This document shows positions 12,832 to 60,466 of a stretch of 64,000 nucleotides of DNA, piece by piece. The DNA comes from Fimicolochytrium jonesii (lineage: Eukaryota), in NCBI RefSeq assembly GCF_025526975.1, contig NW_026515673.1, positions 1-64,000 of the forward strand, read 5' to 3'. Made by a program: the position numbers and the translations under genes. The notes under the pieces are model-generated. The model was not told the origin of the DNA and searched no databases. It saw nothing but the letters and a program-made list of their open reading frames with translations. Numbering within the stretch: position 1 is the stretch's first letter; every line of letters begins with the position of its first letter.

Positions 12832-15800
12832 CTACGCCTTGACAGCAACCTCCCGCGACGACTCGCTCTCCACGCCCTCTGCCGAAACAGCCCTCGCGAT
12901 GTAGTAATACGTGCCAGCCTTGGGCGGGGTAGCAGCATACACGCCATCAACGACGGTCGCAACGCGAAGGTATCCACCGCCGGAGACAACCGAGCGGTAC
13001 ACGTTGTAGGACTTTGCGCCGCGGTCGCTCTTGAAGGCGATGGTGCGGCCAGCGGCTGCGCGGTTGCACCGTTCCGCGACGTGTGGTTTTGAGGGGCTGT
13101 CGAATTTCCCGGACAGAATCAAGGTGGTGGCGGAGAGGCCGTCCAGTTTGATTGTCACGGCGGCGTTGTCGGTGGTGCTGGTGCTGTGGACGACCTTTCC
13201 GCGGTTGGCGAGGACGTCGACCCATGTGGTTTGATTGGGAAGGAGACCGGCAGGGACGGCTACTGTGATGGACTGGGCATCGGCGGCGCGGTTGACGACG
13301 ACGACGGCTGCGGAACCCGCGCGGGCGTCGCGGAGGAGGTATGCGAGGGTTTTTTGCTTCTTGTCCGCGAGCAGGAAGACGGGGGCGGCGGATGTGCGGA
13401 AGACGGGGAAGAGTTGACGGATCCGCGAGACGGCGGCGGTGTGGTGCAGGATAGCGTGGTCGCCGGCGGGGCCGAAGGTGGCGGGGTCGGCGGTCTCGAC
13501 TTTGCGTTCCATGGACGGGCGGATCAGGTCTAATACATTTTTGGGAAGGCCAAGCACACCGGTGCCGATGGCGCCGGTGTTGATTGGGGCGGCGGTCCCT
13601 GCGATATCAGTCCAGTTGAAGGTGCGGCGGGTATCGGGGTCTTGGGCGCCGTTCTGGCCAATCTCGTCACCGTACATGATCATCGGTGTGCCGGGGACGG
13701 TGAAGGAGAGAGTGGTTGCGATCTTGAGAAGTTTCTTGCCGACGGCGACGTTGGCGGCGTCGAGCTCGCGCTCAGCGCGAGAAGCCTTGCCGGGAGTCGC
13801 GATCCAGAGGAAGCGAGGGAAATCGTGGCTCCCGATCAAATTCCAGTTGCCCAAATACGTGCGGTCTGCGTAATCCTCGCGGATGGCTTCCAGCCCGTTG
13901 GCAAACTCCTCCGGGTCCTCGTTACCGCCGTTCTCCTCAGGGATCAGATACGCCATGACAGCGTCGCGGAAACGGTAGTTCATGCCAGCGTCCATCTTGG
14001 TACCGTACAGCAAAGGAAGACACTGCTCACGAGCCATCACCTCGCCGACAAGGAACGTGTCCGGACGGGCGCTGTAGGTAGCCTTGCGGAATCCAGGCCA
14101 GTAATCGTCGGTGTAGGTCCCGCTCCAAGCTGCGTCAAGGCGCCACCCTGCGACGCCCTTTTTCAACCAATCGGCCGCTGGGGTGTAGGTGAGATCCTTG
14201 ACGGCCGGGCTGGACTTGTTCAGCGTGGCCAGGGTATCGTAGCCAAGGAAGCTGTAGTAGTTCTTGCGCTTGCCGTCTTCGCCGACGCAAGGCCCGTTGG
14301 GGTCATTGGTCCACATGAACATATCGCGGTACGGGCTATCGACGGACTCGCAAGCGCCAATAGAGTCGGGGTAGTTTCCGTATTTGTCAAAATACTTAGA
14401 GTCGCTGGCCACGTGGTTGAACACACCATCGAGGACGACGCGGATGCCAGTTTTTTCGGCCGTGTCGACGAATGTTTGAAGGGCCTCGTTTCCGCCAAAG
14501 TACTCGGAAACGGTAGTGAAGTCGCGGGTGTCGTAGCCGTGGTTGGACGCGGCGTCAAAGATGGGGTTGAGCCACACGACGGTGACGCCCAAGCTCTTGA
14601 TGTACGCCAACTTCTCCTTGGCGCCGTTGAGGTCGCCGCCGAACCAGTCGCGGTTGTACGAGCCCTTCGTCTCCGCGGTGCATCCTTCGAGCCAGTTGTT
14701 GCAGCCGGCTTCCGGCAGATCCGTCCAGCCTTGGGGGAAGGAGTGCAGCGTTTCGGCTTCGCTGAGTTCGCCGCAGGTGGTGCAAGTGGCGTTACCGCCC
14801 TTCCATGTGTAGCGGTTCTTCACATACGGGACGGGGTCGTTCTTGACGTCGCCGTTGCGGAATCGATCCGGGAAGATCTCGTAGACGACGGCGTTCTGCA
14901 TCCACTTTGGCGCCTCCTTGTCAAAGGATTTGGGGTAAAAGGTTACGGCGAACTTGTTGACGGGGTTAGCGACCGCCCACTGGCCCACGCCGTTGTCGAA
15001 TGCGACATCGTCACCGTACACGTAGGATGCTGTTCCATCGGTCACCTTGAAGTGGTAGAAGAGTACCGTGGGGACGCGGGATTGCAGCTGGGCCTCCCAC
15101 ACGTCGCATTTGAATGCCGAAAGGTTGTCGTCACCAAAGCAGTCGACGCCAGCGGCGACCACCTTGGCTGCAACGGTGCCGGCCTTCCCGGCAGGGTCGA
15201 GTGATTCGAACTGCACCTGGACTCCAGTCGCATCACCGGCGCGAGTTTGCAGACGGACGTTGACCTTTTGTCCGACGGTAACAGCGCCTTGCGGGGCCCT
15301 GAGTGCATCGTCGCGTGTATTGTGGAGTAAAGCATCGGCGACGACACAGTTGTCGTGGGCACCGGCGATGGTCGAGCACTTGCTCGAGATCTTGCCATCG
15401 ACCGTGACGAGAAGGAGGGAGCTAGCTGCGTCGTAAACGAACGCAACTTCGGCACCGGTCTTGGTGACGGTAAAGTCGGTCTTGGTGCTGGGCACTGTGT
15501 CTTTAGCGGAGAGAACGGCATAGGCGGTGTACGTGCCGGCAGGGATGGCTTTCGAGTTGAAGGCGTAGGTGCCGGTGCCAGATTTGTCGACGGCGTATGC
15601 GGCCAAGCACGAGACGTCATCGTTGGTGGTGCATCCTAGAGTCTTTTGGAAAGTCCCGGCGACGGAGACAACGGCGGTGTTGAAGGTGTCAGAGACGTAA
15701 TGGGAGTTTTGGTCAAAGAAGAAACCGATCTCTTTCGGTTGGTCCAACTTGAGCGCAATGTTGGCACCTCCAAGCTCGCCCTCTGGGAAAACAGAACGGA

Positions 15801-16128
15801 AGGGTATGAGAAAACAAGGGAAAGCGACAAGAACACTCGCCACATGGATCCAATACGCACTTTGTCCATAGTTCACCGTCCAGCCTCCATTGGCGGCGAC
15901 CTTGTAATTGTACGTCCCAGCGGGTAGGGAAACGGTTATTCTCCATACTCCATCTTGGGTAGGAGGGGTCAACTGTGTCTGTACGCAAGTGGGGTCCCAC
16001 ACTTGGGGACATCCGCCGGCAACTTGAAGATCACCAACGAGTGTGATTGTCTTGAAGTCCGGCAAGGCCTGAGCGGAGGCGACGAGGGCGCCAAAGGCCG
16101 AAGCGGCCAGTAGGCGGAAAGGGACCAT
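12832..16128 (-). CDS. Secreted GH13 amylopullulanase/neopullulanase-like enzyme with N-terminal X25-like binding modules and C-terminal FnIII-like tail; one in-frame 78-nt intron (15783-15860)
   Basis: Signal peptide. YEIFPDRFRNGD, GGDLNG, LNPIF..SNHGYD, LDGVFNH, GWRLDAA (nucleophile D), GEV (acid/base E), GSHD, YGDEIG, DPDTRR. GTGCGT...CCCAG intron. Confidence 0.92.
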   Translation of the reverse strand: MVPFRLLAASAFGALVASAQALPDFKTITLVGDLQVAGGCPQVWDPTCVQTQLTPPTQDGVWRITVSLPAGTYNYKVAANGGWTVNYGQSAYWIHVASVLVAFPCFLIPFRSVFPEGELGGANIALKLDQPKEIGFFFDQNSHYVSDTFNTAVVSVAGTFQKTLGCTTNDDVSCLAAYAVDKSGTGTYAFNSKAIPAGTYTAYAVLSAKDTVPSTKTDFTVTKTGAEVAFVYDAASSLLLVTVDGKISSKCSTIAGAHDNCVVADALLHNTRDDALRAPQGAVTVGQKVNVRLQTRAGDATGVQVQFESLDPAGKAGTVAAKVVAAGVDCFGDDNLSAFKCDVWEAQLQSRVPTVLFYHFKVTDGTASYVYGDDVAFDNGVGQWAVANPVNKFAVTFYPKSFDKEAPKWMQNAVVYEIFPDRFRNGDVKNDPVPYVKNRYTWKGGNATCTTCGELSEAETLHSFPQGWTDLPEAGCNNWLEGCTAETKGSYNRDWFGGDLNGAKEKLAYIKSLGVTVVWLNPIFDAASNHGYDTRDFTTVSEYFGGNEALQTFVDTAEKTGIRVVLDGVFNHVASDSKYFDKYGNYPDSIGACESVDSPYRDMFMWTNDPNGPCVGEDGKRKNYYSFLGYDTLATLNKSSPAVKDLTYTPAADWLKKGVAGWRLDAAWSGTYTDDYWPGFRKATYSARPDTFLVGEVMAREQCLPLLYGTKMDAGMNYRFRDAVMAYLIPEENGGNEDPEEFANGLEAIREDYADRTYLGNWNLIGSHDFPRFLWIATPGKASRAERELDAANVAVGKKLLKIATTLSFTVPGTPMIMYGDEIGQNGAQDPDTRRTFNWTDIAGTAAPINTGAIGTGVLGLPKNVLDLIRPSMERKVETADPATFGPAGDHAILHHTAAVSRIRQLFPVFRTSAAPVFLLADKKQKTLAYLLRDARAGSAAVVVVNRAADAQSITVAVPAGLLPNQTTWVDVLANRGKVVHSTSTTDNAAVTIKLDGLSATTLILSGKFDSPSKPHVAERCNRAAAGRTIAFKSDRGAKSYNVYRSVVSGGGYLRVATVVDGVYAATPPKAGTYYYIARAVSAEGVESESSREVAVKA

Positions 16129-18371
16129 TATATCTATTCCTTTTTGGCGGAGTTTGACCGTAGCAAGCCTTACGGACGCCGGCGTCCTTTTTCCCTCTTC
16201 GTTCCTTTTATAGGATTACAGAACTACACCGGGCAGCGGGCACCACACTCACCAACTTACACGACATGCCCATATCGATCGTTTCTCCTTCTGGCCGCCC
16301 GAAAGAATACCACCACGACTGGCAACAATTGAAGCCGGTCTGCGCAGAGGCGATCTCTCTGATTCTCGTTGCCCGGCATATACGGAAGTTGGCAATACGT
16401 GTGTCCGTTGGGCGGAGTATGATTGTGAATACCGCTGGCAACGTTCTTGCGCCCGCGTTTACGGAGCCAAAAGTGCTCCGGCGGACACTCAGCCTAACAC
16501 AATGAACAATGGCAACAAGGGTTGAATGGTACAACTTTTGGACCAAATCAACACAGAAAACCGTCAGGCGGCCGTGGAAAAGAGGGTCACGCGGGAGGAC
16601 AAAAGCAGATCGGGTTGGCAACTAAATAATGACTCGGAAGCGGCAGTCGTCAATCCGGGATTCTGCAGCTACGCCTGCATAGCCCACTTGTTGCTCTCAG
16701 AAGATTCGGCCTGGGGAGGGGAGAAGATTTGTTGTTAAACGCTTGCTCCACATGTGGTTACTCTTCTCCCTACCGGGCTTCTTTGAAGATTCGGACCATG
16801 ATCCAAGGTAAACTAGCGCGGCATAGGGATGAGATGCATGCTCATGTGAAGATGAGCTCAACCTATTATCGCGTCAGTAACAAGGATGGGACGTTAGGTT
16901 ATCCCCTCACCGGTCCGTCACAACCCAAACGGCGCATTATAGCCTGGACGAAGGGCATAGTGCCACTCGGAACCGTACTTCAGTTACTATAGTCATTCAC
17001 TGCCTTTTCGAGCTCCTTCGATTTGGGTTCCGCCTTTCCTCGAGCTTCTTCCGCTTTCCGAAGCTCGTTTCTGAGCTCACTTTGGATATCGTTTGTTTGT
17101 CGGCTATTTCTCTCATCGGTCTGCAGCTCATTCTTGTCAGTCTTGCCTTCCCCAGGCCAATCTGCTTGGCAGCTTCGGTCTTCTCCAGTTGTCGGGACTG
17201 GTCTTCCTCGCACCAGAGGGCGCAGCCTTCAACACAGATATCCAGTTAAAAATCACGCCTGCCACGTTCGCGACTTGCAGTGGCAGCCAACGAATCGACA
17301 CACAAACCCCTCGCTCTTCACACACCCACCTATCGACTCTCGTGATGGCCGCGCCGCTTCCCGCTTCGCCTCTCTTTGTCGTCGGGTAGATCTACAAGGT
17401 AAGCGCCATGTTTCATCCTGATGTGCAGCTGGAGTCACCGCTGTCCTCCAGGATCTGGAAAGATCCCCTCCGTACGTATGAAAGTAGCGACCGGTGGATC
17501 GTCGAGTACGTCGCAAGCACCAATATTGGGACCATTTTCCTCGCCACCACCAGCAAAGAAGCCATTAAGCACCGTCGGTTCCTACCTTTGCCCTATCCCG
17601 ACGTGGATGCTGAAGGAACACTTGCGACGGAACCACCGTTCCCATTTCTGAAACGCACCTATCTCAACTTCACCCATCCGGTCCGAGTTCGCCTTCATCA
17701 CGTCGGCACTGAAAGCCTAAACAACATCAAGTACATGGCCCTCACGCCTTCTCCACCTCCCGGTGTTGGGGCTCGCCTTCCTGAAGTTGCTGGAGAGCAG
17801 AGCTTTATCCCATGAATCACGAACGATGAAATGGCGCTTTTCTGGGCAAGGCACAGACAATACCATTGCGCTCGCAGGGGTGGTGTGGTTGTAAGTGCAA
17901 CTGGCGAACTAAAGGGAGAGGAAGACAGGGGGCGTGGAGGTGCAAGTGGCGCCACAGGGTCATCAGGCAGCGCAGGCGCTTCCCGGGCAGTGCGCGGTGG
18001 GCAACACGGTGGGGAAAGCCAAAGCGAACGTGGAAGCCGAGGGGGTGATTGGGGAAGCATCACCAGAACGCAAGGAGCTTACCGCCCGCCGGACACGAAC
18101 GCGCCCTGGGGATATATTGACGACTAGCGAATTGGCATTGACATGGCGGCCGTTACGGAAGACCCAGAAGCCTCCGATCCGGACACGGAAGAGGATATCT
18201 GGGCTAGAGAGGGTGGCAGGTGGGGGAAGATTTGGTGGAGTGGATTGCCGGAGATGTACCTGTGGAGGACTTTGATCCGGAATTGTCATTAGTACGCCCT
18301 CGCCGTCCTCGACAGTGATTTGTCTATTATCGAACTGATTCTCGTTTTAAGTCATTCATAAGTTTAGGTAG

Positions 18372-18482
18372 TTGCTAACGACGCTACCCGTGTTTGCTAT
18401 CCACGCTACCCTTTAAGCACACATACTCTAGTGTGAAGTGGAGGGTAGGGTGGATAGCAAACACGGGTAGCGTCGTTAGCAA
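18372..18482. repeat. Long hairpin: 41-bp inverted repeat with 1 mismatch and ~29-nt spacer
   Basis: TTGCTAACGACGCTACCCGTGTTTGCTATCCACGCTACCCT pairs with AGGGTAGGGTGGATAGCAAACACGGGTAGCGTCGTTAGCAA. Confidence 0.85.
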
Positions 18483-19418
18483 TTCCCTAAGTTTACTATG
18501 TTTAACCCTTTTAAGGGGTTCCCGTCTTAAGATTGACTTCGAACGAAGACTTCTCAGCATCTGCATCCGTTCGCACGCTCCCTTTCTTTTGCCGACAACA
18601 ACTGGTAGTAAGGGATCCATACTCTCTCCGCATGACCTGTGAGTGCCACGAAGGAGGACGCAAAAAGCACAGAGGATTTTGGCACGGATGACAACATCCA
18701 CGGAGTGCCGAGATGAATTTTCTCTACTGGGATCCGACGCCGCTTGTGATGTACGGCAATCTTGAGCAAGTACGGTTGGAGATGGTTGCTTCCGTCGTAG
18801 CCCATTGAAATGATCAGCTCCATTGCCTGTCCGCGCTTTTTGAGCTGCGGTAGGTCTGACCGTGCCGCCCATGGTGAAAATATGCACGTGGATATCATTA
18901 TTCTCACCCCGCACGTACTGCCTTGCATCCTAAGCCGTGCCTGCCTTAGGGTAGGATGCAGCAACCGCACCGTGCACTGAGCAGAGAAAGAGACGTTAGT
19001 CACAGCAAAGACGGAAGGATGGGCAAATCCCGCGCACCCTTAATCCTCCGTGCCAGACGGCGAAATTGTTTTCACGCCTAATCTTCGCATGCGTCTCTAT
19101 AGGCCCGCCCGCTTCGCATCTCTTGTATAAAACGAGGATGGAGCTCTCTCTGCAAACGCCACTGGTGCGTCATCGCTACTGGAGAACACGCTGAGCGTGA
19201 TGTGTCCTCGTCGCGTCGTACCCAGATATCTGGCCATCTACTGTAAAGGCATCATCCGGCCATGAGTGAGATGAGTGCCCGTCTCCCTGCGCTTGCGCCT
19301 GTTTGCATGACAACCGTGAACTAGACTCATAAAGCTACAGTACTCGCCGGCTACGACCCTCGGGCCTCTAGAACAAGACCGTCGCTGTCCCTCCACCAGA
19401 CCCTCGCCCCGGAAGTCG

Positions 19419-43860: not shown

Positions 43861-45185
43861 ATCGAAGGTGTGCGGAGATCGATCGGAAAAGGGGACTAAA
43901 CTTCAACCAGGGGCCTAAACCGGTCCGACCGACAGAGGACAAGCGACAACGGCCTACAGATTTGCGTCAATACACAACAGCGAGGGCCATTCGTTCTGCA
44001 GAAGCAGCTGGACCTTGGACCTTTCGCACTTGCACCCTGCTCAGACAGGCGGGCACACCTTTTTGTAGCCCTTCTGTACCACCATTTCACACTCCCCAGC
44101 ATTCACTCCCTGACATTCACGATTTTTTGACACCTCGACCAGAGCGACGGCATGCTCTCAGACAGACTGACAGCAAAGGCGATTATCACCAGAGACATTC
44201 CCGTTTCTCTGGACATTTGCTCAAAAGTCATTTTCAGTCCTTGCGGCGGGTCAGACAACTAACTCTCTCGAAGCTGTCGCCGTAATTAATCTAGATCGAG
44301 CGCCGAAACCCCACGCTCTCGATTCTCTCAGACAGGAAAGAAGGAAAATATCGGAGTCTCTAATAGAAAGCACGCATCTGATCTCTCGACCAATCGATAC
44401 CTCCTTCAGAAAAGACTGCCTATTTGCTCGCAGGCGGCATGGAAGCAGCTGACCCCTGTAGGATGGAGGGTCCCCGCATGAAAGCTACGCCTTTGGTAAT
44501 ATTGATTAATAGTATTTATAGTATGTGGGTTATAGTGATTCAATGTATATGAATACAGAATAACTTGCCGGTTAACCGTCGGATGCCAGCGACCGCTCCC
44601 TTTTATAAAGGATTTCGCAAAAGTCTGTGCAACATCAGATGTGGCGGAGAGTGGCTTGCGCGCCACGCCTCCCGTACAGTACTGTACTTTAACGTACGCT
44701 ACAGTCACTCCTCGGAAATAAATCAGCGACTGCGGCAAAGCCAAATTCACGTGAGTTATCGACATTGATTTCAATAGAGGGGGCGCCCATCTCTCGGGGT
44801 TCTTTTTCCAAAACTCAGGATCCAATCATCTGGGCTCTCTGCTTATGGGAAATACTATTACGGAGCTGTTTTTGATCAACAACGAATAATACAATTCTGT
44901 CTCTCTGCTGCTCTCTCCGCTGCGACGGATCCATGTAGCACCATCCCAAACAAAAGATCGCGCAAGCAATAAACAAGTCTATTCCTATATGTCTAGAGAG
45001 GAGACTAGTCTACCCTTCCTCGCGCAACGGGATTCTACACTATGCAATAGGTAAAGAAGCTCAGAAATTCACACCTACGACCCCGATGCATGTCCCGATG
45101 CTTGTCCCCTCCTGCTCCTTGCAAAGCTGTCCGCGCTCGTGATAAGTCCCTCGTTCGTTCGTCATTCGGCTCCCGTTCTCGTTAC

Positions 45186-45388
45186 TACAGTAGGATGCCA
45201 AAACGGACGTTACGACGGGCGCGTCGAAATTGACGGCATTTGGGCTACTACCTAGGTTAGTAGTCGCGGCTGGCCGGCCCCCGGTCAACCACGCAATGGC
45301 TAGACGGCAGCCGGTGACTTCTGCTGGTCACAAAGATTTATTGACCGCGTCCATGCCGTCGTAACGTCCGTTTTGGCATCCTACTGTA
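45186..45388. mobile_element. MITE (Tc1/mariner/pogo-type), 31-bp perfect TIRs, TA target-site duplication
   Basis: TA|CAGTAGGATGCCAAAACGGACGTTACGACGG ... CCGTCGTAACGTCCGTTTTGGCATCCTACTG|TA. Confidence 0.88.
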
Positions 45389-45475
45389 ATACTGTTAAGG
45401 CTTCCAAAACAATCATCAATAAATGAATCCGTTGATCCAGCATGTAGGACCCACCTGTTCAGAGGCTATACCCCT

Positions 45476-46240
45476 TCATGTGGTGGGACATTCTCCTCGT
45501 CTCCCTCGGCAAGAATCTTCTTTCGGTTCGTGGCCATCGTTTCTTGCCCCCCCACTTTCGAGTTCCTCGAGTGCCTCGCGCTTCTTCGCAAACCACTTCA
45601 ACACCTTGTAGTCCTGCATCCCTGTCTCCCGCGATATCGGCTCAGGCTGTTCACGGGTTGGCAGCTGTGTTTCCATGAATAGCGTCTCCAGGGCCTCATC
45701 GTGCTTTTGTTTCTGGCTTTTCTCTTTGACTTTGACTTTGGCTTTCTTGGTAGGGCGAGGGGCCTTGGTTGGAGGGGCTCTCCAAACTTTCTTAGCCTCG
45801 TCGAGACCCTTTGCGACAGCCAGCCATCTCTCGCACTTCTCGTCGTCCAGCCCATGCGCACGGATCAAATGGTACTTCAAGTCTCCCCAAGTTCGCATGC
45901 GGTTTCTCGCATTGCACCTTTGTCCGCGTACCCGTTGCACAGTTTCGTGTTCCGCGTCATCATCGACCAGTACGCGGCAAATGAACGGTTCAACATCCTT
46001 ACTCGTGTCATTTGCGTCTCCACTGCCGCCAACGGGGGTGTCCATGCTCGAGATGGTGTTTGAGAAGGTCCGGGCTTTCATAGGAGATGTTGCAGCCATG
46101 GTGGGGGGAGGGGTGCAGTTTGGCGGAGCCGATGACGGGTGTACCGGGTGTTGGGAGCAAATGATCGGGTAGGGCATGCGCTCGGATGCATTCGGTGATA
46201 GCTTCTTTCGTACGACCTCCCCCTCAACGCTGCAGCCCAT
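45476..46240 (-). CDS. Divergent homeodomain protein with upstream atypical C2H2-like finger (likely element cargo)
   Basis: LETLFMETQLPTREQ..ISRETGM..YKVLKWFAKKR fits the homeodomain helix pattern (L..F...P......G....V..WF..R). Upstream FIC...C...DLKYHLIRAH. True start uncertain. Confidence 0.6.
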   Translation of the reverse strand: MGCSVEGEVVRKKLSPNASERMPYPIICSQHPVHPSSAPPNCTPPPTMAATSPMKARTFSNTISSMDTPVGGSGDANDTSKDVEPFICRVLVDDDAEHETVQRVRGQRCNARNRMRTWGDLKYHLIRAHGLDDEKCERWLAVAKGLDEAKKVWRAPPTKAPRPTKKAKVKVKEKSQKQKHDEALETLFMETQLPTREQPEPISRETGMQDYKVLKWFAKKREALEELESGGARNDGHEPKEDSCRGRRGECPTT

Positions 46241-46751
46241 TCTTGTATATCAACATGGGAGAGTGCGGCCGCCACGTCACCCCGTTGCTTCTGCATGCCG
46301 AGAAAAGAGTTGACCCCAACCAACGCCACCCGCAAATTACCCCTCCGTGTGGCCGTAGGAAATAAGACGGTTGTCAGCAATAATGTGGCAATCGCCGATG
46401 CGGTCGAAATTGAGCGACCATGGCAATCCCCCCCCTCCACGCTCCCAGCACGTTCGTGATTGCACAACGGTATCGACTGTTTACGGCAAGCGTGATGTAG
46501 TGCGATACACTCGCCCCTTCCCCCAACCGATGAAGGCGGGCGTCTTAATCCATTTGCTCTTACCTTCAGATGTCTAACACCACACCACACCGAAGCCCTT
46601 GTAGGACAGGACCCTGAAAGGAAATGTTCAACCTTTCACCTTTGAATGTGAACCTCCCGCCGACTTTGCAGATCTCTTCAGTCAGTGGTGATGCAAGCAG
46701 CGAGTTGGGAAGCTCGACGAAGATCGTGGGAAAATATCGTATCGACGGCTT

Positions 46752-46943
46752 CCTGGGAAAATATCGTATCGCCATGGCCATTGGAAGTAAAACATACAGG
46801 GGTTGCGGGGGAAAAAAAGCGCGGCACTTTGACGGCGCTTTGACGGCGCCCCTCCAAGACAGCCACCTAGGCACACACCTTTGGCGGCGGGCGGTATATG
46901 TTGCAAACGAGGGGAACGATCCGCTATCGGCGCGTAGGCTCCT
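46752..46943 (+). repeat. Second copy of the recombinase-upstream segment (inverted relative to 54262-54416; its 3' flank directly repeats 54414-54446)
   Basis: 46752-46924 matches the reverse complement of 54262-54416 apart from a few indels. 46910-46943 AGGGGAACGATCCGCTATCGGCGCGTAGGCTCCT matches 54414-54446 in direct orientation. Confidence 0.92.
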
Positions 46944-48880
46944 GTAAACGCGGAGGTGAAGTGTGAGGTTGGAACACAACCAGCGACTGACGTTGACGGA
47001 CACGCTACCTTTATCGGCGGCCATGGTGCTTGCTGTGCTCTCTGTCGTCGAGCTGGGCGTGCGTATATGTACTGTATGTATATATGCCCCGAGGAAGCGG
47101 ATGGGAGGTGGGGCGTGCGGTTGACATCCATGCGGTGGGAACGTAGTTTCAGGATGTACTTGACCTCGGCCATTGTCAATGTTGCGCCGAGTTGGTCGAG
47201 TACGGTCTCAACCGAGTGTAAAGTTTCCTCAAGACGACTAGGTTTCCCGCTACGGATTGTTGATGTTTGAATTGTTGATGGAATTGGTGTTGGGAAGTGG
47301 TGAATTGGTGAAAGAGAGTGAATTGGCAAAGGAGATGTATTGGTGTTTGAATGGTTGATGGTTATAGAACGGGATGGACGGTTGTCGTTGCAACTCGTTC
47401 TAGCAGCTCAAAGAACAACCCGACCTCATGATAGCTTTTGATAATGTTACACGCAGTGCAAGCAATGCGCAGATTGATCAAATCGCTGTATGGGCGGCCT
47501 GCTTCCAATCGCTCGAGTGTAATGGATGGGGTCGTATCCATCCACTGCCTCGTGATTTGCAGCGTCCGATGGCAATAACAGCACCTCCCATCCCCTATAC
47601 GCCATAGATAGCTGATAACGTCTGCCATCTGCGTTGTGAGCTAGAAAGACAGTTCGTACGTCTGTGTTAGACATTCCGATAGATGGCGTCAAGGACTCGA
47701 ACAACAAAGGTGCAAAATACTCCATACCTTTCGGTCGTCCCTGGTCGCTAGTACCTGCATCCGCATGTCTGGGGAGCTTGCGTACAGCTGTGGATTTCCA
47801 TTTCACGGGCAGTTTTGAACCCACGGCCGCAGTCACAATGATGAGGGCGGTCCGCATCGCATAAATGGCTGAGCAGGTGAGCATTCCGTGGTCGGGGCCA
47901 CCAGTACTCTCTGCCGCATAAGCTGCATCCCCAAAGCGTGTGTTGTGTCACGATGATTTGGAACCTTCAAAAATGCTGCCTAAATGAGGATATCCCAGGA
48001 TGAGGATGAGTGTGTATATATATGTGGGCACGACACTGAACGATGTAACCAGCGCGGATGTCAGCGTACCATTGAACAACCTCACGGCATCTTCACAGGC
48101 GCGTTTGTCTTCATACGTGAGTCGGGCGTGGTTTCTTCCCCGCGCTCTAGATCTGGTCAGCAGCTTGAGGCCCCTCGCGGGTTTCTTGAGGGCTCCGAGT
48201 CTCCATTGAAACCGAGACTCCTGCATGCACAGTCGATACCCCCTTCCTCCTCCTGTTCGACACCGTCAGCGCAATCGATCGTCTGTTCGTCATCGTCGTC
48301 GTCCCCATCGTTCTCGTCCTCGTGACGGTCTTCATGCATGTGCAGGTCGTGGTTGCGCTGGCCCTCCGTCTCGTCGGTCTCCACTCTCCCACGGACCCTG
48401 GGCAAGTGATCCCGGTAGTGTGCCTTTGTGAACTCTTCATAGGAGTGGAAATCGTCGGCGTACTCGCACTTTCGGCAGACAATGTGGACAACTTGCAGTG
48501 GTGGTGGGAGCCGCCCATAATTCCTTTCGCATGCTCGCACGTGCCGAAAGAGGTTGTGGTGGCGAAGGGTTCCTACCTCCTTTCGGCAGTCGGGCACTGG
48601 GCATTGCAAGTTGCCCAGGTCCATAGATTCCTACCACGAGCGCGAGTGGAAATGGCTTTGCTTGCGCTGGACAACCGATGGCATGCAACTTGCGTAGCAA
48701 CGGAACATATGCACTTGAAATTGAACCCGATCCCGATCGCGTAGTCGTACTCGAACTCATCGTCAGTGCCCCCGATCGCGTCTCCGCCATGGTCCTCTTC
48801 GACTAATCCAGCACCACCGCGCAAGGAGGCCTCCCAAGTGATCCCGCCGCGAAGAGTTTCTAGAGTCCCTCCAGCTAACA
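46925..48880 (-). pseudogene. Degenerate zinc-finger + HNH (His-Me) endonuclease-like gene(s)
   Basis: CPVPDC..HNLFRH..C and CRKC..H...H (48157-48624). CSLCGREY..RNAHLLSH and CDCGRGF..IHSC (47748-47951). GRCCYC..SITLERLEAGRPYS..NLRIACTACNIIK (47362-47628). Interrupted by introns, stops and frameshifts. Confidence 0.6.
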
Positions 48881-48934
48881 ACGAAACTCCAAGCCCTCAC
48901 AGCTCTCCCAATCCGGCGCCCTGAAAATTATCCG

Positions 48935-49140
48935 CGCCAAAGCCGGTGCCTGCGACATCCTTCTGCTGTAGCGATGCCTCTCCAGCGGTTCGTGGAAGAG
49001 ACCGGCGCCCCGTGGGGAATGTGGGCAACACGTCGCACTTCGGAGGCCGCGCGAGAGGTAGCACGCGGCTGCAGGGTCGGGATTCCGGCGTGGAGAGGCA
49101 TCGCTACAGCAGAAGCATGTCGCAGACAGCGGCTTTGGCG
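48935..49140. repeat. 50-bp inverted repeat (3 mismatches) around a 106-bp spacer
   Basis: 48935-48984 CGCCAAAGCCGGTGCCTGCGACATCCTTCTGCTGTAGCGATGCCTCTCCA pairs with 49091-49140. Confidence 0.88.
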
Positions 49141-50206
49141 GTCGCGGGGACTTTCAGATCTGCACGGCGCATGATCTCGCACCCGTTGTGAGGGGGTGTG
49201 TTTGGGATTCCGAAGGGGGTTTGAGGAGGAGAAGGGTTTAAGGCCGCGTGTAAGGTGTTTGTGAAGGGGTGGAGGAGGGAGAAGATGCGGCGGAGAGAGG
49301 GGGGCCGCGGATGTCCCGTTTGGGAGCCTTCTGTGGGTTTGCGTGGATAGGCGGGGTCGGGGGAGGATTCCGCTGTGGGTCAGTGGCCAAATGTCAGGCT
49401 CACACTCATCACGGATATATCGTTGGCCCGGTACTCGAAAAAACTTTGAGTGCTCGCCAGCCGATGCAGAACAATATGACGACACGAGTACGAAAACCGC
49501 TCATTGTTTTCTGGGTCCTTCCTATGCTTTTCAACCTCTCGACCGCTGGAAAGGCCGTTGCGCGCCAAGTGGTGCTTGTGCTTTGGTGCCCGCAGGTTCG
49601 CGGAGGCCGTGACGTCTGGGCTGAGGTGCTAGTGGGGAGCCAGGTTTGACGAGAGGGGGTTCTGCAACAAAATCAGAGGTCACCGGCTGTTGCAACACCC
49701 CAAACCCGCACTCCCTCGGCTAGCCTCAGTTTGCGCACTCTGTAGCGAGACGGCGGCCTTATACTAGTTGAGAATTTGTAGCCCAGCCCCCTCTATTACG
49801 TACCTCAAGTTCTTGTTGCGGTCGTGGGGCTGGTCGTGGGGGATGCCCATTAAGGGCGAAGCCGCGCTGCCGGCCGGTTGTGCCCTCAACTCCAGCCTCA
49901 ACTCCCACGACGCCGCCTGCGGCCTTCTGTGAACAATATCATATTTGGAAGTTCTTGGTTGTTGGCTTTCGTGCGAAGACAGAGCCCACGAATTTCAAAA
50001 AGTTCGCTATCATAGAGACATTCAGTTCACCATGTCCCCTATGATGCGCCCATGTCCGTCTCAGGGTCTATAAAAGACGGGACGGTCGACGTCCACGGCT
50101 CCTCCAGTTCTGTCCAAGATTCAGTCAGGCATAGTGACGTCCAAGACCGTCTCGTCTACATAACACTCCCCTCCATTCCCGCAAGGGACCGTAATCCCTC
50201 CCAGAA

Positions 50207-50461
50207 ATGACCCTGACCACCACTGCAGCGCCCGGCCAGCTGCCCTCGCGACAGCCGAACCAGCCGTTCTTTCAGCTTCAACGACCGGGCACGGGCATGG
50301 ACGTTGACCGGGCAGGAGATCACCGTGCCGAGAAGCCACCGAAGCCGGCCACACCGCCGCCTGTGCTCGAGCCCGTCACCGACGACGGCTCTATGCTGAA
50401 GTTTAATGACCGCGTTTGGAGGTTCGGGGGTAGTGGAGAGACCACCGGCTCGTCTGTCTGA
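50207..50461 (+). CDS. Putative small protein (84 aa) inside the recombinase element
   Basis: ATG ORF preceded by TATAAAAG at 50069-50076; no domain recognised. Confidence 0.35.
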   Translation: MTLTTTAAPGQLPSRQPNQPFFQLQRPGTGMDVDRAGDHRAEKPPKPATPPPVLEPVTDDGSMLKFNDRVWRFGGSGETTGSSV

Positions 50462-51213
50462 ATCCGCATCACGACCACCCCGCTCCCTTACTCCGGACCC
50501 TTGATTTGCATATTGTATACATAGTTCCCATCCCACAATCCCTTGCCAGAATCCAAAAATGCACACCAATTCAGATCGTTTCGTTCGTTTCTTGGCACAA
50601 TCGGCCGGCGGTCAAAATTATATTCGACAAAATAATACAAAGGCTAAAAGAGTAGAATTTACAAAATTGTATAAGCGCACGGAAGAGCACGAGCGCTGCT
50701 GGCGGGTGATATGTGTGAGTGATGTGATGGCTGGGGTTGGTTTCGCAGAGAAACGACAGCGGGTGCTTAGAATCAATTGTTCGATTTTCGCGGTGACGAA
50801 GGTGTTATGGTTTTGCGTCAGACGGAGGCGGGATTGAGGTCATGATGGCGAGGGGTATTGGTTGGATGCGGCGCCGATGTTGAATTTGGGATATGCGGGC
50901 GGGAGTTGCGTGATGGATGCGCTTTTGGTGCTTAGTACTTGAGGATGACTGCAATAGGGAAAAGACGTTAAAAATCGTTGATTAATGTTAAATCACATGT
51001 TAATAACAAAATAGATCTCTCTGACCCGCCGGTAGCGATACACCAGCAACGACAAAAGTAAGTTGGTATCTCAAATATATTCACTCAAAGTACAACGATG
51101 TACTTTACACCCCATATCTAATCAACGTCCTCCATGCGCGACTGTAACAGCAGCTTCTCACGTCTCATACAAAGTTCGTCTCCTCAACGTCCCCTCTACG
51201 TCCCCTTTAGAAC

Positions 51214-54159
51214 CTACGTGTTCTTATCGGGGCAAGACACAGCGTTGTGGCCTGTGCCCTTCTTCCCGCACGACCCGCATTTGCGTGCTTGTGGGCGGGC
51301 TGTACGTTTACTCGAACTGGGCCCCTCATTTACGTCCTCCGAGTCAGCCCGCACACGTTTCGACATCCCGTGCGTCACGCCAACGTTGGGTTTGCCAACC
51401 TTACCGGTGTGGTACACACGTTCCTTGCCAGGGGTGTGATACGCGACGTCGTGTTCCGCCATTCCTGAACGAGTCTCATTCCTGAACACGCACTTGATAC
51501 CGTTGACCGTCTTGTCGCAATGAAACTTGCATTGGCGCTCGTGCATCGGCAGGTGGGTCAACATGTGGGTCATGAGTGAAGTCAAACATTTCTCCCTTCT
51601 CGCGGACGTAAGAGCAAGGTTATCTGCGATTTTTTGGAAAAAGGGATTAGACTAAAGGGACGGGCGCGGGCAACTGGCATGCACTACTCACCATCACGAA
51701 CGAACTTTGGTGCCGGTGGGCTGTGCCAACAGTGTACGTTGCCAGCTGATGTGTCACGTGCAGGGAATGGGCAGGCCAAACCCCACGGGTTCTTGCACCT
51801 CACGTCTTGGCCGTAGATCCCCAATTCGATCCCGGATTCGACATTGGGGGCGATAGGGAGCAGTACGCTGAACTCACAATCGGCAGCAACGTAGCCCCCG
51901 ATTGTCCGTGCGGTGACCTTGAGTGTAGTAGGACCAGCTGACGTCCCAGCCGGTACGTTCCACCAAATGCCATTTTCGGTGACGTCGAACGCTGCGAGCA
52001 CCTCAAATACGACGTCGAACAGCGAGGACGTGTCGACCGGAGGCATAGTGACGCGCTCGGCCGGAGGAATGAGCCTTTGGCCTGCCCAGTAAAGATCCTC
52101 ATGACGTTCTTCGGCCTGACGTTTGAGAAACATGCGCCTACGTTCACGATCAGCCATAAGCTGCTTCCGGTCGTCACCGACGATTTCACGGTCGGCCAGC
52201 ATGTTATGAGCGTCCATCCATTCCTCGTCGGCGGCGTAGATCTTCTCCAGCTCTTCGGTGGATATGGGCGGGCACGGCGCGCTGCCACGTGTGTTCCACA
52301 AAGACGAGGGGCTTTCCTGGTACACGTTGCCGTCGCTGACCAGATCGCCGTTGAGTTCATCCGAGAGTGATCGGGCAGGTAGTCGCGTGTGACGGTAGAG
52401 CCAATAACGTGAGCGACGTAGGCTTGAAGATCGTCGGCCTTCATGCCGCTCTTCTTGGCGGCCTCGATCCATCCTCGTCTGTTTGACTTCATGGAAACGT
52501 AGCAAGGCTGCAGGCAGGCGGACGTGGCAAGTTCCTTGAGCAAACGACTCGCGACGTATGTCGATAGAGGTGAGTTTGCAGCACCCGCGCGCACCCAAGG
52601 GCTCACATCGACGACGACCTGTGGGGGGTTGGATGGAGGAGGTCAAAGACCGTCGGTGCACGCAGTTTGCATGCAAACCCACCTGCCACTCTTCGCACTC
52701 TGGCCGCAACGTAAAGTCTCCCGAGTTGAGGACGTCCCGCCACGGGCGCAAAAACATGCCTCGAAGGATGAATGAGATCGTCAGGAGGGTACCCAATGAC
52801 GTCCAATGCTCTTGGTCAAAGTCGATGCTGAACTTGAGCTGGACATTGGCGTCGCGAATCGTGTGGCCTTTGATGAACTCGATTACGATGCAACCACCAA
52901 CGTAAGGCGAACCGTTGGGCAGACGTTTCAAGGCAAACTCCACATTGCGAGCACGTAGTCCGCCAATCGCACGTTGGGTAATAGTCACCATGGTCCTTGG
53001 TAAGGTGGAGACATTAATCATGGTGTGCAAGGGGGCCCAATCAATACTCTGGTTTGCTGATCCATACCATGAGGGGACCGTCGACTAAAAAGTCACGTAA
53101 CTGAAAAGCGAGTCGTTCTTGCTCGGCGTCATTGGCAGGTCTGTAACCGTCACGTAAGGAGACGGAACTTGGCCGCAGTCCGTAGCAGTGCGACATTGAC
53201 TGCATCACGGCAGTCATCAACGTCCGCACGCGGTCCTCTCTGTTCACATCTTTGTCCTTGACGATGCATTGCGCTGTCTTCATCAAGAGACGGTGTTCTT
53301 GAGCTCCCAACGGCTTGCACCGAGTTACAGGTTTTCCAAAGCCCTTGTCTTGCGACTTGAGCAGCATAAGGTGGTCGATGGCCTTGCCGGTCACGATGGT
53401 AACGTCGTGCACGTCCTTGATCGCGTAAGACAGCACCTCTATTAGGAGAGAGAGGGCGATGAGATGGACGGTTCGACAACCCTCTGAAACAAGCTTTAGC
53501 AGGGGCCCGATCGATGAACGCACCCGGATGGTATTCCTTAGGGTCTTGTAACCGTACCGGCGCACTTGTCCTCCCCCGGCGCTCGGCTTCTTCTCCTCGT
53601 ACAACGTCCGCGCAAACTCAAAGAGGTCGTCCTCGCTGTCCTTGACGTCGTCCCATGCGCACTCATGGCCTGGGGCACGACCAAGCCCCACGCGTGCAAA
53701 CGATTTCCACGTCTCAAGGACGCGGTCTAGTTGCAGTTGGTACGTGACAGCCCACTTGTTGCGTTTCAACAGCATGTGGACCTTTTCACGTCGAGCCTTG
53801 AGCTCCTCACGTTCTTGTGCAGATCGCGCAGGCTGGAGGGCATCACGTTCTTCAGCTGATAAATGGGACTTCCGACAGACGTACTGACCGCGTGCGTTCG
53901 TTCGTTTGGCCTTGTAGGCGGCGAGGCGTTCGGCGACCGTCAACGGGGTGCTGGTGGCGGCCGAAGGGCGACAATCCTTGACATGATGGGGGATGGGGTT
54001 AGATTTTAAATGACTGCACTTGGGTGTCACGGCCTGGATACGCACATCTGCTTCTTCCACCACAGCTTCTTCAACGTTCTCCAAGACGTCGGCGGCCGCG
54101 TCTAAGAGCTCATCTTCATCATCGTCTTCGATCGCCGCCAACTCATGTGCGCCGAGCAT
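51214..54159 (-). CDS. Tyrosine recombinase, DUF3435/Starship-captain-like, with C-terminal C2H2 and CCHC zinc fingers; ~5 introns and one apparent frameshift (~52340)
   Basis: Ordered YR-type residues: YGLRPSS (R), IEFIKG (K), MKSNRRG (xxxR), VAHVIGS (H), TRDYL (Y). Then RGSAPCPPISTEELEKIYAADEEW, reminiscent of the captain C-terminal region. Last exon has CKFHC...C...EHDVAYH and CGSCGKKGTGHNAVSC. Donors GTGCGT/GTATGG/GTGGGT/GTGAGT join the ORF pieces. Confidence 0.72.
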
Positions 54160-54261
54160 GTTTTTTTGCCGTGAAGGGTGGTGACTGTGCTTTTGCTGTG
54201 CTTCGTAGTCTGATTTTCCCACGCTGATTTGATTTGGCAAATATGCAGAACAGCGATCGGC

Positions 54262-54427
54262 GCGGACGTTCCCCTCGTTTGCAATATATACCGCCCGCCG
54301 CCAAAGGTGTGTGCCTAGGTAGGTGGCTGTCTTGGAGGGGCGCCGCGCTTTTTTTTCCCCCGCAACCCCTGTATGTTTTACTTCCAATGGCCATGGCGAT
54401 ACGATATTTTCCCAGGGGAACGTCCGC
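54262..54427. promoter_or_regulatory. 166-bp candidate invertible promoter segment bounded by perfect 14-bp inverted repeats
   Basis: GCGGACGTTCCCCT (54262-54275) and AGGGGAACGTCCGC (54414-54427). TATATA at 54285-54290, ~126 nt upstream of the recombinase ATG. Confidence 0.55.
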
Positions 54428-54445
54428 TATCGGCGCGTAGGCTCC

Positions 54446-54544
54446 TTCTCGTCGTCGTTCTCGTCGTCGTTCTCGTCGTCGTTCTCGTCGTCGTTCTCGT
54501 CGTCGTTCTCGTCCTCGTCGTCGTCCCCATCGTTCTCGTCCTCG
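54446..54544 (+). repeat. 12-bp tandem repeat (TTCTCGTCGTCG)x5 + variant, ending in a 30-bp copy of 48293-48322
   Basis: Five perfect units at 54446-54505. TCGTCGTCGTCCCCATCGTTCTCGTCCTCG at both 54515-54544 and 48293-48322. Confidence 0.9.
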
Positions 54545-55029
54545 GTGCCGCTACTTTAATTTGACGATTAATGGATGATGCATGCATTAAGGTTGACATC
54601 CAGGTCATGGTCGCAATATTAGATTAATGGCGATACTTGTGATTCATGTACATATCTGACATATGATAATGGAAGGGGGAGGGAGGGGGGGGATGGATGG
54701 CTACCTAGCTAGGGGGATTGCTCGTGCTGTATAAACACGATGCAGAAGATGGTGATTGAGCGTGCTATTGACCGCGTACTTTTTTCCCACTGCCAAGTAG
54801 GGGCAATAAAGGCTTCCTTCGGACGGACGTCGATCTCAGGCGTCCCGTCCTGAGGAAGTTTCCAATCGTCTGCGTAGGGGGGCGTCGGCTTTGTTTTGCG
54901 CAGGTTGGTAGGGTCGCAATTGCGATCCTGATGGTGACTGAGTTCGATCTCGAAAAGTCGCAAAGGACGCGCCGACGGGGCACTGGGTATAATATACACA
55001 GTAAGTGGGGCTGCGAGTCGCCGAATTAT

Positions 55030-55274
55030 TTAGTACTTGAGGATGATCCAGAAAGCGTGGATGATTCCGGGGATGAAACCGAGGATCGTCAGTGCGAGGT
55101 TGATGAGGACGTCGATGCTGCATCCGCGCTCGAGGAAGACACCCTATAGAGATGAGAAGTAGGTGAGAATGGAGTTCGAAAAAGAGGTGAAGCAGCGGGC
55201 TAGTGGGAACGCACCAATGGGGGCAGGATGACGGCGGCAATGAACTTGAAGATGTCGGAGCAGGTGAGAGCCAT
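55030..55274 (-). CDS. PMP3: Plasma membrane proteolipid 3 (57 aa; intron 55144-55214)
   Basis: Spliced product MALTCSDIFKFIAAVILPPLGVFLERGCSIDVLINLALTILGFIPGIIHAFWIILKY. Confidence 0.93.
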
Positions 55275-57498: not shown

Positions 57499-59613
57499 TA
57501 GAGGTGATCCATCGATGCGCGAATCAAATCTGAGATGATTGAGACGGGACTTGCCGCCGCTTGGGTCGTCAGCGCCTTCTCTGCGTACTGACCAGTCGGC
57601 TCATCAGATAGCCGGTTGAGCGGGATTGTCACAGCGAGCGCTATATGCTGGTGCGACCACCATGGATCCGCAGGAATCACGACATCAGCGTTGAAGCATG
57701 GGCCATAGATGCGTAAACTACATATGTATATATGTGCCCCAAGTAATCAAAGCCGGTGTCTCCAAGTTCACAAAGAGAGGACTGCGCGTCAGTCGGTGAA
57801 CACGAACTTGTCAGTAGCTTGGGGAAAATCGCCGGGGGTGGCATCCCATATGTAGGATTCACGCCCGTGTTCCATCGAACAGTTCCCGACGTCCCACGGG
57901 TACTTTGATTCTAATTCAAGAGGAAGAGGAAGAGATCGAAGATGTGGTTTCGATTAGTTTCAGAGGCCGGTCATGGACGCAAAAAGTTTGCTTCGAAGCA
58001 GACTGTTTTATGCGCACGTAGGGCCCACGGCACGAAACTTCTTCAAATATGTGCAGAATCGCCGAATCAAATCCTTCTCTATATATTCGGGACAGTCCCG
58101 ATTTGCTTTGCAGAACTTGCCAGGACAGTCATGATGATTTGATGCATTGGCACGTCGTCTGCCGGGAAGGGGATCGACCGAAACATGAAAGTTACGACAG
58201 AGACCAGCTGGCAGGAACGTGCCAGCGCGCTCCACGCGTTTAGACAGTGTCGGACACGAAAGCGAGGGTCCGACCACCTCGCGCACATGGGACCCTGGTC
58301 CTACCATTCCCGGTGTCAAGAGAGGGAAGGTGCCGATTTGGACTTGGAGGAGCCCGCATACAAGCAAGCTCCTTGACCCGCTCGCCCGCATGCCCCAACG
58401 TTCCGAACGGTGTGAAGAACCCCAATCACCCCGGAGCCAAAAACGCGTCCGTGACTGCTCCCGTCATCCCGCCCACAAGTTCCGAAAATGTTCTCGCACA
58501 TATACCCCCGCTCCTCGATGGTCATCCTTCTCCTTGCTCCTGCCTCCGAAAAGGGGAGTGGCATGCCTCAGGCTGCTTTGGCCACCCCAAAACGCGTTCG
58601 TGACGCCCCTCCACTTACGTAAGCGAGTTCGGACGTCCAACGAGTCCGAAACTCTCTCGGACTGCACATATACCCCCTCCTGCTCCTGTCCACCTCCATG
58701 GTGATATCTTCCCCCTTGACGAGAATATTTGCTCGCCTTCGCAAAACAGGGTTCTATGGCTGCAAAGCAGACAGAGCTCTACGCTCGTCGCATGGCGTCC
58801 CGTACGAGGGAAAATGGCAGGGCTCGTATGACCAGCGGCCGCAACGCGTGCCGTATCTGTCTTCTTCACTTGCCGTTCCCTTCGTTCCCTTCTTACTGCC
58901 TCCACCACTTCAAAGACCATTTCACAGACATCTTCCCCATCGGTGAGAATTTTTTTCTTTGACCAGCTGGGGATACATGCGACCATCTCACGCTTCAACA
59001 GGTAATGCTGTGAGTGCCTTCTGCCTGCGGCTGATGAGTTGCAATCCCTAGCCCCCTCCTGACATTCCTCTAAGGCAGAGACTTTCCACTGGCTTCCAGG
59101 CAACGTGCACTAGTAAGGATATTGGTAGCCATAGCAATCGCCCCGCCTAGGACGGCTACCAAGGTATAGAGTCGGACAAGTGCACTGCAGAGTGCCAGAC
59201 GGATCATGGTTGGGCACGTCACGTCTCCCGACCCATCTTAACAAGCGCTCCCGCGTGCCCTGCATGCTTCAACTGTCCGCTCCGCCAAATTGGCCGAGAC
59301 CCAAAAACGCGTCCGTGACGCGTTTCGAGTCAGCAACGTTCCATGCCTTCGGACATCCAAAAAATGTCCAAAAACGTCCACGTCAATTCGGCTACCATTC
59401 ACCTGTCTGGAATCGGCGCTCACGCGCTCACGAACGGTTTCCCGGGAATGGCCCGGGGTCGGTGGCGGCGTGGGTGCAGTTGAAATTGTAGGGGTCCAGG
59501 ACGCGGAGCCTCACCCCGTCCACCTACCGTACCTTCCGCTCAGTTGCATTGTGATGATCGGGGGATGTTCCCCGTTAAATGAGACCCGACCGAAGTCTTC
59601 AAATCTGTGTATG

Positions 59614-59969
59614 TACAGTCAGTGTCCATAAAGCTCCGACCCCCCCCAAGATTAAGTCAGAGTCGGCACGTCTCACGTGACGGGCCCCCAGAGCAAACAG
59701 CCCTAAGCCGTTGCCAAGATTGCGGAGCCTCCAACAAACACCCCAGCACTCGATGATGGCAGGGGTCTAGAGTAGGGCTCTAATCCCCGTACTAAGGATG
59801 ATGGGCTGCCGCCGTCCTTGTTGCCGTCATTTGCCGGTGTCGCTGGCTGTCTGGTTGGCTGTTAGCTCTGCCTTTCGCTGGGAAACGCGCGACTCGCTTT
59901 GTGAAACGGTCATTGAAATCAGTTGAAATCAATTATAGGGGGGTCGGAGCTTTATGGACACTGGCTGTA
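59614..59969. mobile_element. MITE (Tc1/mariner-type), ~30-bp TIRs with 1 mismatch, TA duplication
   Basis: TA|CAGTCAGTGTCCATAAAGCTCCGACCCCCC ... GGGGGGTCGGAGCTTTATGGACACTGGCTG|TA. Confidence 0.87.
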
Positions 59970-60466
59970 TGTACATGCCTCACGCGTTTACTACTGTCTG
60001 AGCCGCCTCGTGATTTTTTTTCCAAAAGAAAGAAACACGAAAACGCGTTCGTGACGCGTCGGTCGTCTTTCACGCGGTTTCTTGTTCATCATTGATTTTT
60101 CGTCGACAATTACAGTTATCGGACATGCATGCGGAACCCCTACGGATATCTTATCCATCTCGTCCATGTTTCGTGTGCAGGTTCATAAGTGTAGGGGGTT
60201 AAGCAGGGGGTTTGCGTACGGCTCCAGATATTCCTATTGGCATATGTTGTGAAGATGAAACATGATTCAGATGCTCTATCTCTAGATATCTACATGGCTA
60301 TGTACTGTGCACGTGCATGTATGTAGGAATGTATGTGCAAAAAACATATTGTGAGATACGCCGCGATGCAAGAGATGTCCTGAGGCAACGTACGCCAAAT
60401 TGACAAAAACCGTCCGAGAGTAGCAGAATGAGAGTCCCCCCAACGTCTCCCAGAACGCGCCGCGAA

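Follow-up and report, generated by a model that had tools for sequence, protein, structure and literature searches.

A damaged tyrosine recombinase element with inverted end modules in the chytrid Fimicolochytrium jonesii

We analysed a 64,000-nucleotide stretch of the genome of Fimicolochytrium jonesii, a chytrid (GCF_025526975.1, contig NW_026515673.1, positions 1 to 64,000; hereafter the window), in which a block with a tyrosine recombinase (YR) gene lies between a PMP3 gene and an SNF2/helicase-C gene. An earlier note on this DNA had described a block of ~9 kb at 45400-54550 between HELLS and PMP3 and had read it as a small Starship-like element, led by a recombinase of the captain (DUF3435) type and carrying cargo. 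The block holds a YR element that is damaged and belongs to a chytrid family near the Starship captains; it is not a Starship with cargo. The place of the block beside PMP3 (PF01679, E 5e-17) held up, with an SNF2/helicase-C gene in the position given to HELLS, while its extent had to be revised, because paired, flipped modules with a common core, terminal repeats that the earlier note overlooked, bound a unit of 7.7 kb at 46752-54446. On balance we favour the reading that 46752-54446 is a frameshifted and likely mobile YR element, whose recombinase is predicted to bind the module arms, recombine a 7-bp core, excise the element as a circle and return it at a matching site.

The recombinase gene and its chytrid family

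The YR gene was read from the following features.

51214-54159, minus strand: YR gene, five exons, spliced model of ~890 aa
53523-53439/53437, 53047-52996, 52682-52619 and 51691-51624, minus strand: introns of the YR gene

The model was spliced by script with a placeholder residue at a frame break near 52335, and another break may lie at intron 1. The NCBI gene model for F. jonesii (P0001) is identical to exons 3-4, confirms the intron at 52682-52619 and goes out of frame at the break near 52335. The catalytic residues stand in order (R300, K384, K490, R493, H516 and Y526), and C2H2-like and CCHC-like fingers were read by eye at the C-terminus, which bears out the spliced minus-strand gene with ordered YR residues and Cys/His fingers that had been proposed at 54159-51214; the R/K/xxR/H/Y order also stood, with its box II motif refined to K-x-x-R.

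When 1.84 billion representatives were searched by phmmer, with the third long YR frame as query, 13 proteins scored E 0.001 or better. Ten of these are homologues, all from chytrids (seven in Geranomyces, three in Rhizophlyctis rosea), and the remainder were P0001 and two hits that were dropped as spurious (P0009, a repeat protein, and P0013, which has PKD repeats). P0002, a chimeric model of 1645 aa, was counted as a homologue and excluded from the alignments and the residue counts. In the resulting ten-row alignment the window model shared 29-34% identity with nine homologues across the catalytic region, and each catalytic residue was kept in every row that covers it (R300 in 8 rows, K384 in 10, K490, R493 and H516 in 9 each, and Y526 in 5). 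The window's first YR frame aligned with P0005 as far as the first catalytic arginine (E 1e-10). The homologues are divergent, mostly fragmentary and present several per species, features that, taken from their sequences, likely mark a mobile-like family. P0004 and P0010, which are 35% identical, have locus tags just 30 apart in one Geranomyces annotation, and this proximity suggests local clustering of family members.

Other searches added little to this set. The word-index homologue search gave no match for the N-terminal YR frame, and others of its kind returned single proteins (P0001 from one, P0012 from another). Exact look-up in the protein collection left four window frames without a match, no related locus was found in the viral and metagenome contigs searched, and plasmids yielded no match and phages only rows at E 8. 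The literature search, whose scope left out Repbase, subscription papers and bioRxiv supplements, found no description of this chytrid YR family.

The assignment to the tyrosine recombinases was examined with profiles and models. The family profile matched only two PDB entries, both XerD (E 0.15 and 0.19), with KSNRKG aligned over HVLRHA and the histidine over LGH, and hhalign of the family against eight bacterial YRs gave P 79.7 and E 1.5e-5. In a VIA search with the AlphaFold2 (AF2) model of P0003, YRs made up 8 of the 25 rows, including the top two (Z 2.0-2.9), and one family member matched the XerD/XerC models of NCBIfam at E about 0.01. Foldseek with the P0003 model gave no match at E 0.001 or better, single-exon PDB searches gave unrelated matches only, and the AF2 model of P0005, which was poor (pLDDT 46.5), retrieved no YR in Foldseek or VIA.

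Relation to Starship captains

The earlier note had expected a DUF3435 profile match for the YR gene, and none emerged: the Pfam cut-off for DUF3435 (PF11917, 25.8 bits) was reached by 0 of the 13 phmmer hits and by no window exon, in a scan of these hits and the separate exons. The best score was that of P0003 (13.5 bits, E 0.035). No captain was found among the 13 phmmer hits, and the central motif is KxxR in 9 of the 10 aligned rows, not the YxxR or HxxR given for captains in the available text of the main Starship survey (PMC11162782).

Atlas models of P0001 and P0008 matched integrase and DUF3435 clusters, with TM by target up to 0.79. For P0008 the top feature matches were DUF3435 clusters (0.95, 204/256 features), and its best structure row reached the naming bar for DUF3435; for P0001, a partial model, DUF3435 was the first structure row, below that bar. 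By these model comparisons, made with the homologue P0008, DUF3435 is the nearest named family of the chytrid YR. Because of the catalytic columns, the XerD/YR alignments, the Atlas rows and the sub-threshold Pfam scores, the protein is, as judged from sequence and predicted structure, a tyrosine recombinase whose closest named family is the captains and which is not itself a captain by the criteria tested.

According to the portions of the main survey available, no Starship YR was found outside Dikarya and an origin in Pezizomycotina is argued; among the matches listed, all 14 Chytridiomycetes genomes scored 0, and Fimicolochytrium, Geranomyces and Rhizophlyctis are absent from the survey genomes listed (PMC11162782). 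A chytrid family with captains as its nearest named relatives would be a concrete outgroup, with which the origin of Starships becomes testable by one tree.

Terminal modules, arms and cores

The ends of the element comprise the following features.

54447-54545, minus strand: left flank, a 36-bp copy of internal 48287-48322 (blastn 35/36, E 2e-9), then a slipped 12-mer array
54435-54446, minus strand: P, a degenerate arm whose reverse complement matches arm a at 8/12
54428-54434, minus strand: core/spacer c, site 1, GCCGATA
54262-54427, minus strand: left module M, consisting of 14-bp arm a, ~140-bp X and the exact reverse complement of a
54255-54261, minus strand: core c, site 2, GCCGATC, in the same direction as site 1
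46910-46943, minus strand: site 3, consisting of P, core c and arm a with one extra T
46752-46924, minus strand: right module, M flipped, its outer arm clipped after 3 bases
46724-46751, minus strand: 21-bp local duplication at the broken right end

Self-blastn aligned 46752-46924 in inverted orientation with 54262-54416 (173 vs 155 bp, E 3e-51), and the two modules differ by four indels and one substitution; the two arms of the left module are exact 14-bp inverses. Read in gene direction, the left end runs P, core, arm, X, inverted arm, core, and the right end P, core, arm, inverted X, three bases of the inverted arm and the 21-bp duplication. The P-core-arm segment forms a 34-bp direct repeat (46910-46943 and 54414-54446) that self-blast recovered; 100 shuffles gave 0 matches to it. 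The three module ends that are intact all adjoin CGCGCCGAT in one direction as loxP-like sites, and three of the four occurrences of this 9-mer in the window, counted on both strands, are at these ends. GCCGAT itself recurs as a direct repeat at 54261 and 46931. The 8/12 match of P to the arm is equalled by 0.45% of window 12-mers.

Joining the inverted arm, the core and the arm yields a 14-7-14 site, near the geometry described for YR sites, in the text available, of 11-13-bp arms around 6-8 bp (PMC3212892). The ends give a eukaryotic YR a defined arm-core-arm site that could be assayed like Cre/loxP. Flipped end modules with loxP-like sites would be a new layout for such elements. Going inward, the ATG of the YR gene (54159) lies 96 bp from site 2 and 269 bp from site 1. 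YR is the first gene and points inward. The stretch 48287-48322, the source of the left-flank copy, is an internal acidic-coding stretch, and 54447-54545 is likely either left over from an older copy or filler from repair. The ends folded no better than shuffles (z -0.94 and 0.86), Rfam gave no match, and neither self-blast nor local alignment revealed a Ngaro-type B1/B2 repeat.

Contents of the element and the adjacent homeodomain frame

The remaining features of the block are given below.

47362-48624, minus strand: ZnF-HNH gene, probably single and spliced, with C2H2-like fingers, an acidic tract, two more fingers and an HNH/endonuclease-VII-like domain
48935-49140, strandless: miniature inverted-repeat transposable element (MITE)-like foldback of 206 bp with 50-bp arms, found by self-comparison inside the element
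45476-46177, minus strand: open reading frame (ORF) with finger-like motifs and a homeodomain (PF00046, E 1.9e-5, passes cut-off)

No reverse transcriptase (RT), gag or DDE family was found in any of the 51 stop-to-stop frames of at least 80 aa between 45061 and 54623, as the earlier note had proposed. The same 51 frames gave no match to typical Starship cargo (DUF3723/FRE/PLP/NLR), and the homeodomain was the only Pfam match among them to pass its cut-off. That note had also listed co-directional ZnF-HNH and homeodomain genes as parts of the element. The domains were recovered, the HNH weakly: the HNH/endonuclease-VII-like exon matched phrog_1035 (E 2.4e-4), phrog_2118 (E 1.3e-3) and Pfam HNH (E 0.16), and the fingers of the same gene were read by eye (Pfam E 0.13). 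The ZnF and HNH pieces are probably one gene with about three frame breaks, and the homeodomain ORF, which lies ~500 bp beyond the right module and outside the repeat-bounded unit, would not be part of the element. The repeats enclose YR and one broken ZnF-HNH gene, with no host-type cargo found. Of the small captain-led Starship with cargo, support was obtained for a small chytrid element that lacks RT and has a captain-like YR as its first gene; the cargo was not supported, as a nuclease gene is all that the repeats enclose besides. GCR1_C had no Pfam match on the exons or the homologues.

Splice-like signals and short frames were also seen within the element at 49380-49850 (minus strand) and 50195-50461 (plus strand); they had no family match and are possibly small or decayed genes. 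An exact 17-bp match joins the element interior (50932-50948) with the last PMP3 codons (55030-55046) and may reflect chance or a captured fragment. GC and dinucleotide content of the element equal those of the host. Host frames of 1127, 811 and 608 aa in the window are intact, versus ~4-5 frame breaks in the two element genes (frameshifts occur in both the YR and the ZnF-HNH gene); given the intact long host frames, the breaks come from decay or else from a repeat that was poorly polished.

Proposed mechanism

In the mechanism that we propose, the YR would bind the 14-bp arms and recombine the common 7-bp core, releasing the element as a circle able to insert again at a matching site. Pairing of cores would release one of three circles, namely the module (173 bp), the body (7,330 bp) or module and body together (7,503 bp), and closure of the module circle would create a perfect arm-core-arm site. 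In the simplest history, an older and damaged copy, with its module in the opposite orientation, received a module-plus-body circle at its P-core-arm site; such an insertion would explain why the outer and inner sites are identical, why an acidic remnant stands on the left and why the right module is clipped and rich in indels. The HNH gene is a putative helper or homing nuclease, and inversion between the identical arms is our guess for how the module was flipped.

As far as the sources describe them, the closest layout is that of KolobokP, in which a mobilising enzyme and a His-Me/HNH nuclease lie, as the YR and the putative HNH nuclease do here, between two terminal modules with short inverted arms of their own, and for which solo modules and multimers are expected (PMC9587614). 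We regard this as analogy rather than homology, since KolobokP, reported from animals, has a DDD/E transposase and direct modules of 450/660 bp (PMC9587614). The arm-spacer-arm geometry (14-7-14 in joined form) resembles Cre/loxP, and the box II region of XerD aligns with the chytrid YR, although Cre and XerD are very distant in sequence (16% over 70 columns) and the chytrid YR is eukaryotic and contains introns. More tentatively, and with less confidence than in the element itself, we suggest an unnamed group of chytrid YR transposons, sister or ancestral to the captains, in which a YR+HNH body is joined to a flippable mini-module with perfect loxP-like arms that may move alone or with the body. 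Such a group would match KolobokP on the YR side and would represent, outside Dikarya, a proto-Starship free of cargo.

Several observations weigh against the mobile-element reading. It rests on one locus, with no second copy, solo module or empty site seen, and the P0001 cluster has one member. Both genes are broken, which makes activity today unlikely if these breaks are not errors of the assembly, and with the right outer arm and core missing the right boundary is provisional. Sequences beyond the two modules are unrelated (shuffle p 0.28). A module flip with an unflipped core is unexplained by classical homology-dependent YR exchange. Each YR test is weak alone (VIA Z 2.0-2.9, with a model pLDDT of 57), and the Atlas features for P0001 place an unnamed Ascomycota cluster (0.95) and an NDC10_II/CryptonF-like one (0.93) above DUF3435 (0.92).

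Alternative explanations

An ordinary Crypton-like unit (54261-46925, with GCCGAT direct repeats) that had landed in an unrelated foldback MITE, or whose ends such a MITE had hit later, would make the composite appearance incidental, an account that we consider possible but doubtful. Cryptons (CryptonF, CryptonS) are, in the descriptions available, small RT-less YR DNA elements that recombine short direct repeats (PMC9977147), and the body here is bounded by a 6-bp direct repeat, its likely core, as in Cryptons (PMC3212892; PMC9977147), GCCGAT falling within the 4-6 bp of Crypton-type terminal direct repeats; inversions at target sites are reported for CryptonF-1_cRei (PMC3212892; PMC9977147), and the window holds five other MITE-like foldbacks. 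The same account requires an extra event to place a 34-bp copy of P-core-arm at the far left, and the 8/12 resemblance of P to the module arm ties body and module together. Moreover, Cryptons are described in the text available without terminal inverted repeats or long direct repeats (PMC3212892; PMC13465315), whereas the chytrid element has inverted modules and a 34-bp repeat, lacks any GCR1_C or C48 peptidase that we could find and carries an HNH gene instead. Long inverted ends and an internal junction copy adjoining the right repeat also recall DIRS-type retroelements, which carry inverted terminal repeats and an internal complementary region as far as the source describes (PMC13465315). 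An RT-less derivative of such an element is nevertheless very improbable: the internal copy has direct and not complementary orientation, families of RT, RNase H, gag and methyltransferase all went unmatched, the YR gene has spliceosomal introns, and the Atlas rows name no DIRS-type family.

We judge it unlikely that the element is a true, small Starship that extends on the right past the homeodomain gene and has that gene as cargo. Starships are defined, in the text available, by direct repeats at their flanks, a DUF3435 gene at the 5' end and often terminal inverted repeats (10.1101/2021.12.13.472469), and are described as forming circles (10.64898/2026.09.21.753150). The chytrid YR shares with the captains its large, intron-split form, its C-terminal zinc fingers and its place near the left end as first 5' gene pointing inward; a short, directly repeated core is likewise found with captains, including those of Basidiomycete Family 11 (PMC11162782). 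DUF3435 is nearest in the Atlas, as seen for P0008, and the broken right end means that the element was possibly once longer. The chytrid YR differs from the captains in staying below the Pfam cut-off in all 13 hits and the exons, in the absence of captains among those hits, in KxxR against YxxR/HxxR (PMC11162782) and in a host outside Dikarya; the element, for its part, measures 7.7 kb, has no host-type cargo or DUF3723/FRE/PLP/NLR match, bears ~155-bp inverted modules with internal sites in place of short end repeats, and has its sole terminal-type repeat ahead of the homeodomain gene. We assign the same low likelihood to a one-off rearrangement or mis-assembly, in which template switching at the borders of a simple long-inverted-repeat element would have copied the P-core-arm segment together with the acidic piece and the 21-bp duplication. 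Filler-like duplications do occur at both borders, and the indel-heavy differences and broken element genes, set against intact host frames, would fit unpolished repeats; yet if the far-left P-core is disregarded, the same core still stands beside inverted arms at sites 2 and 3.

Other features of the window

Foldbacks occur elsewhere in the window. One at 45183-45391, with 36-bp arms and TA-like ends, lies between the homeodomain ORF and the SNF2 gene and is MITE-like, and others are at 87-520, 18359-18495, 19176-19226 and 59608-59975. The stretch 273-323 resembles 19176-19226 in inverse orientation, which suggests a MITE family. Near the foldback at 59608-59975, a 23-bp motif is present in four copies (58421-60057), possibly the ends of another small element. 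At 12832-16215 (minus strand), an intron-poor frame of 1127 aa reads by eye as a bacterial-type amylopullulanase-like protein, for which horizontal transfer is possible.

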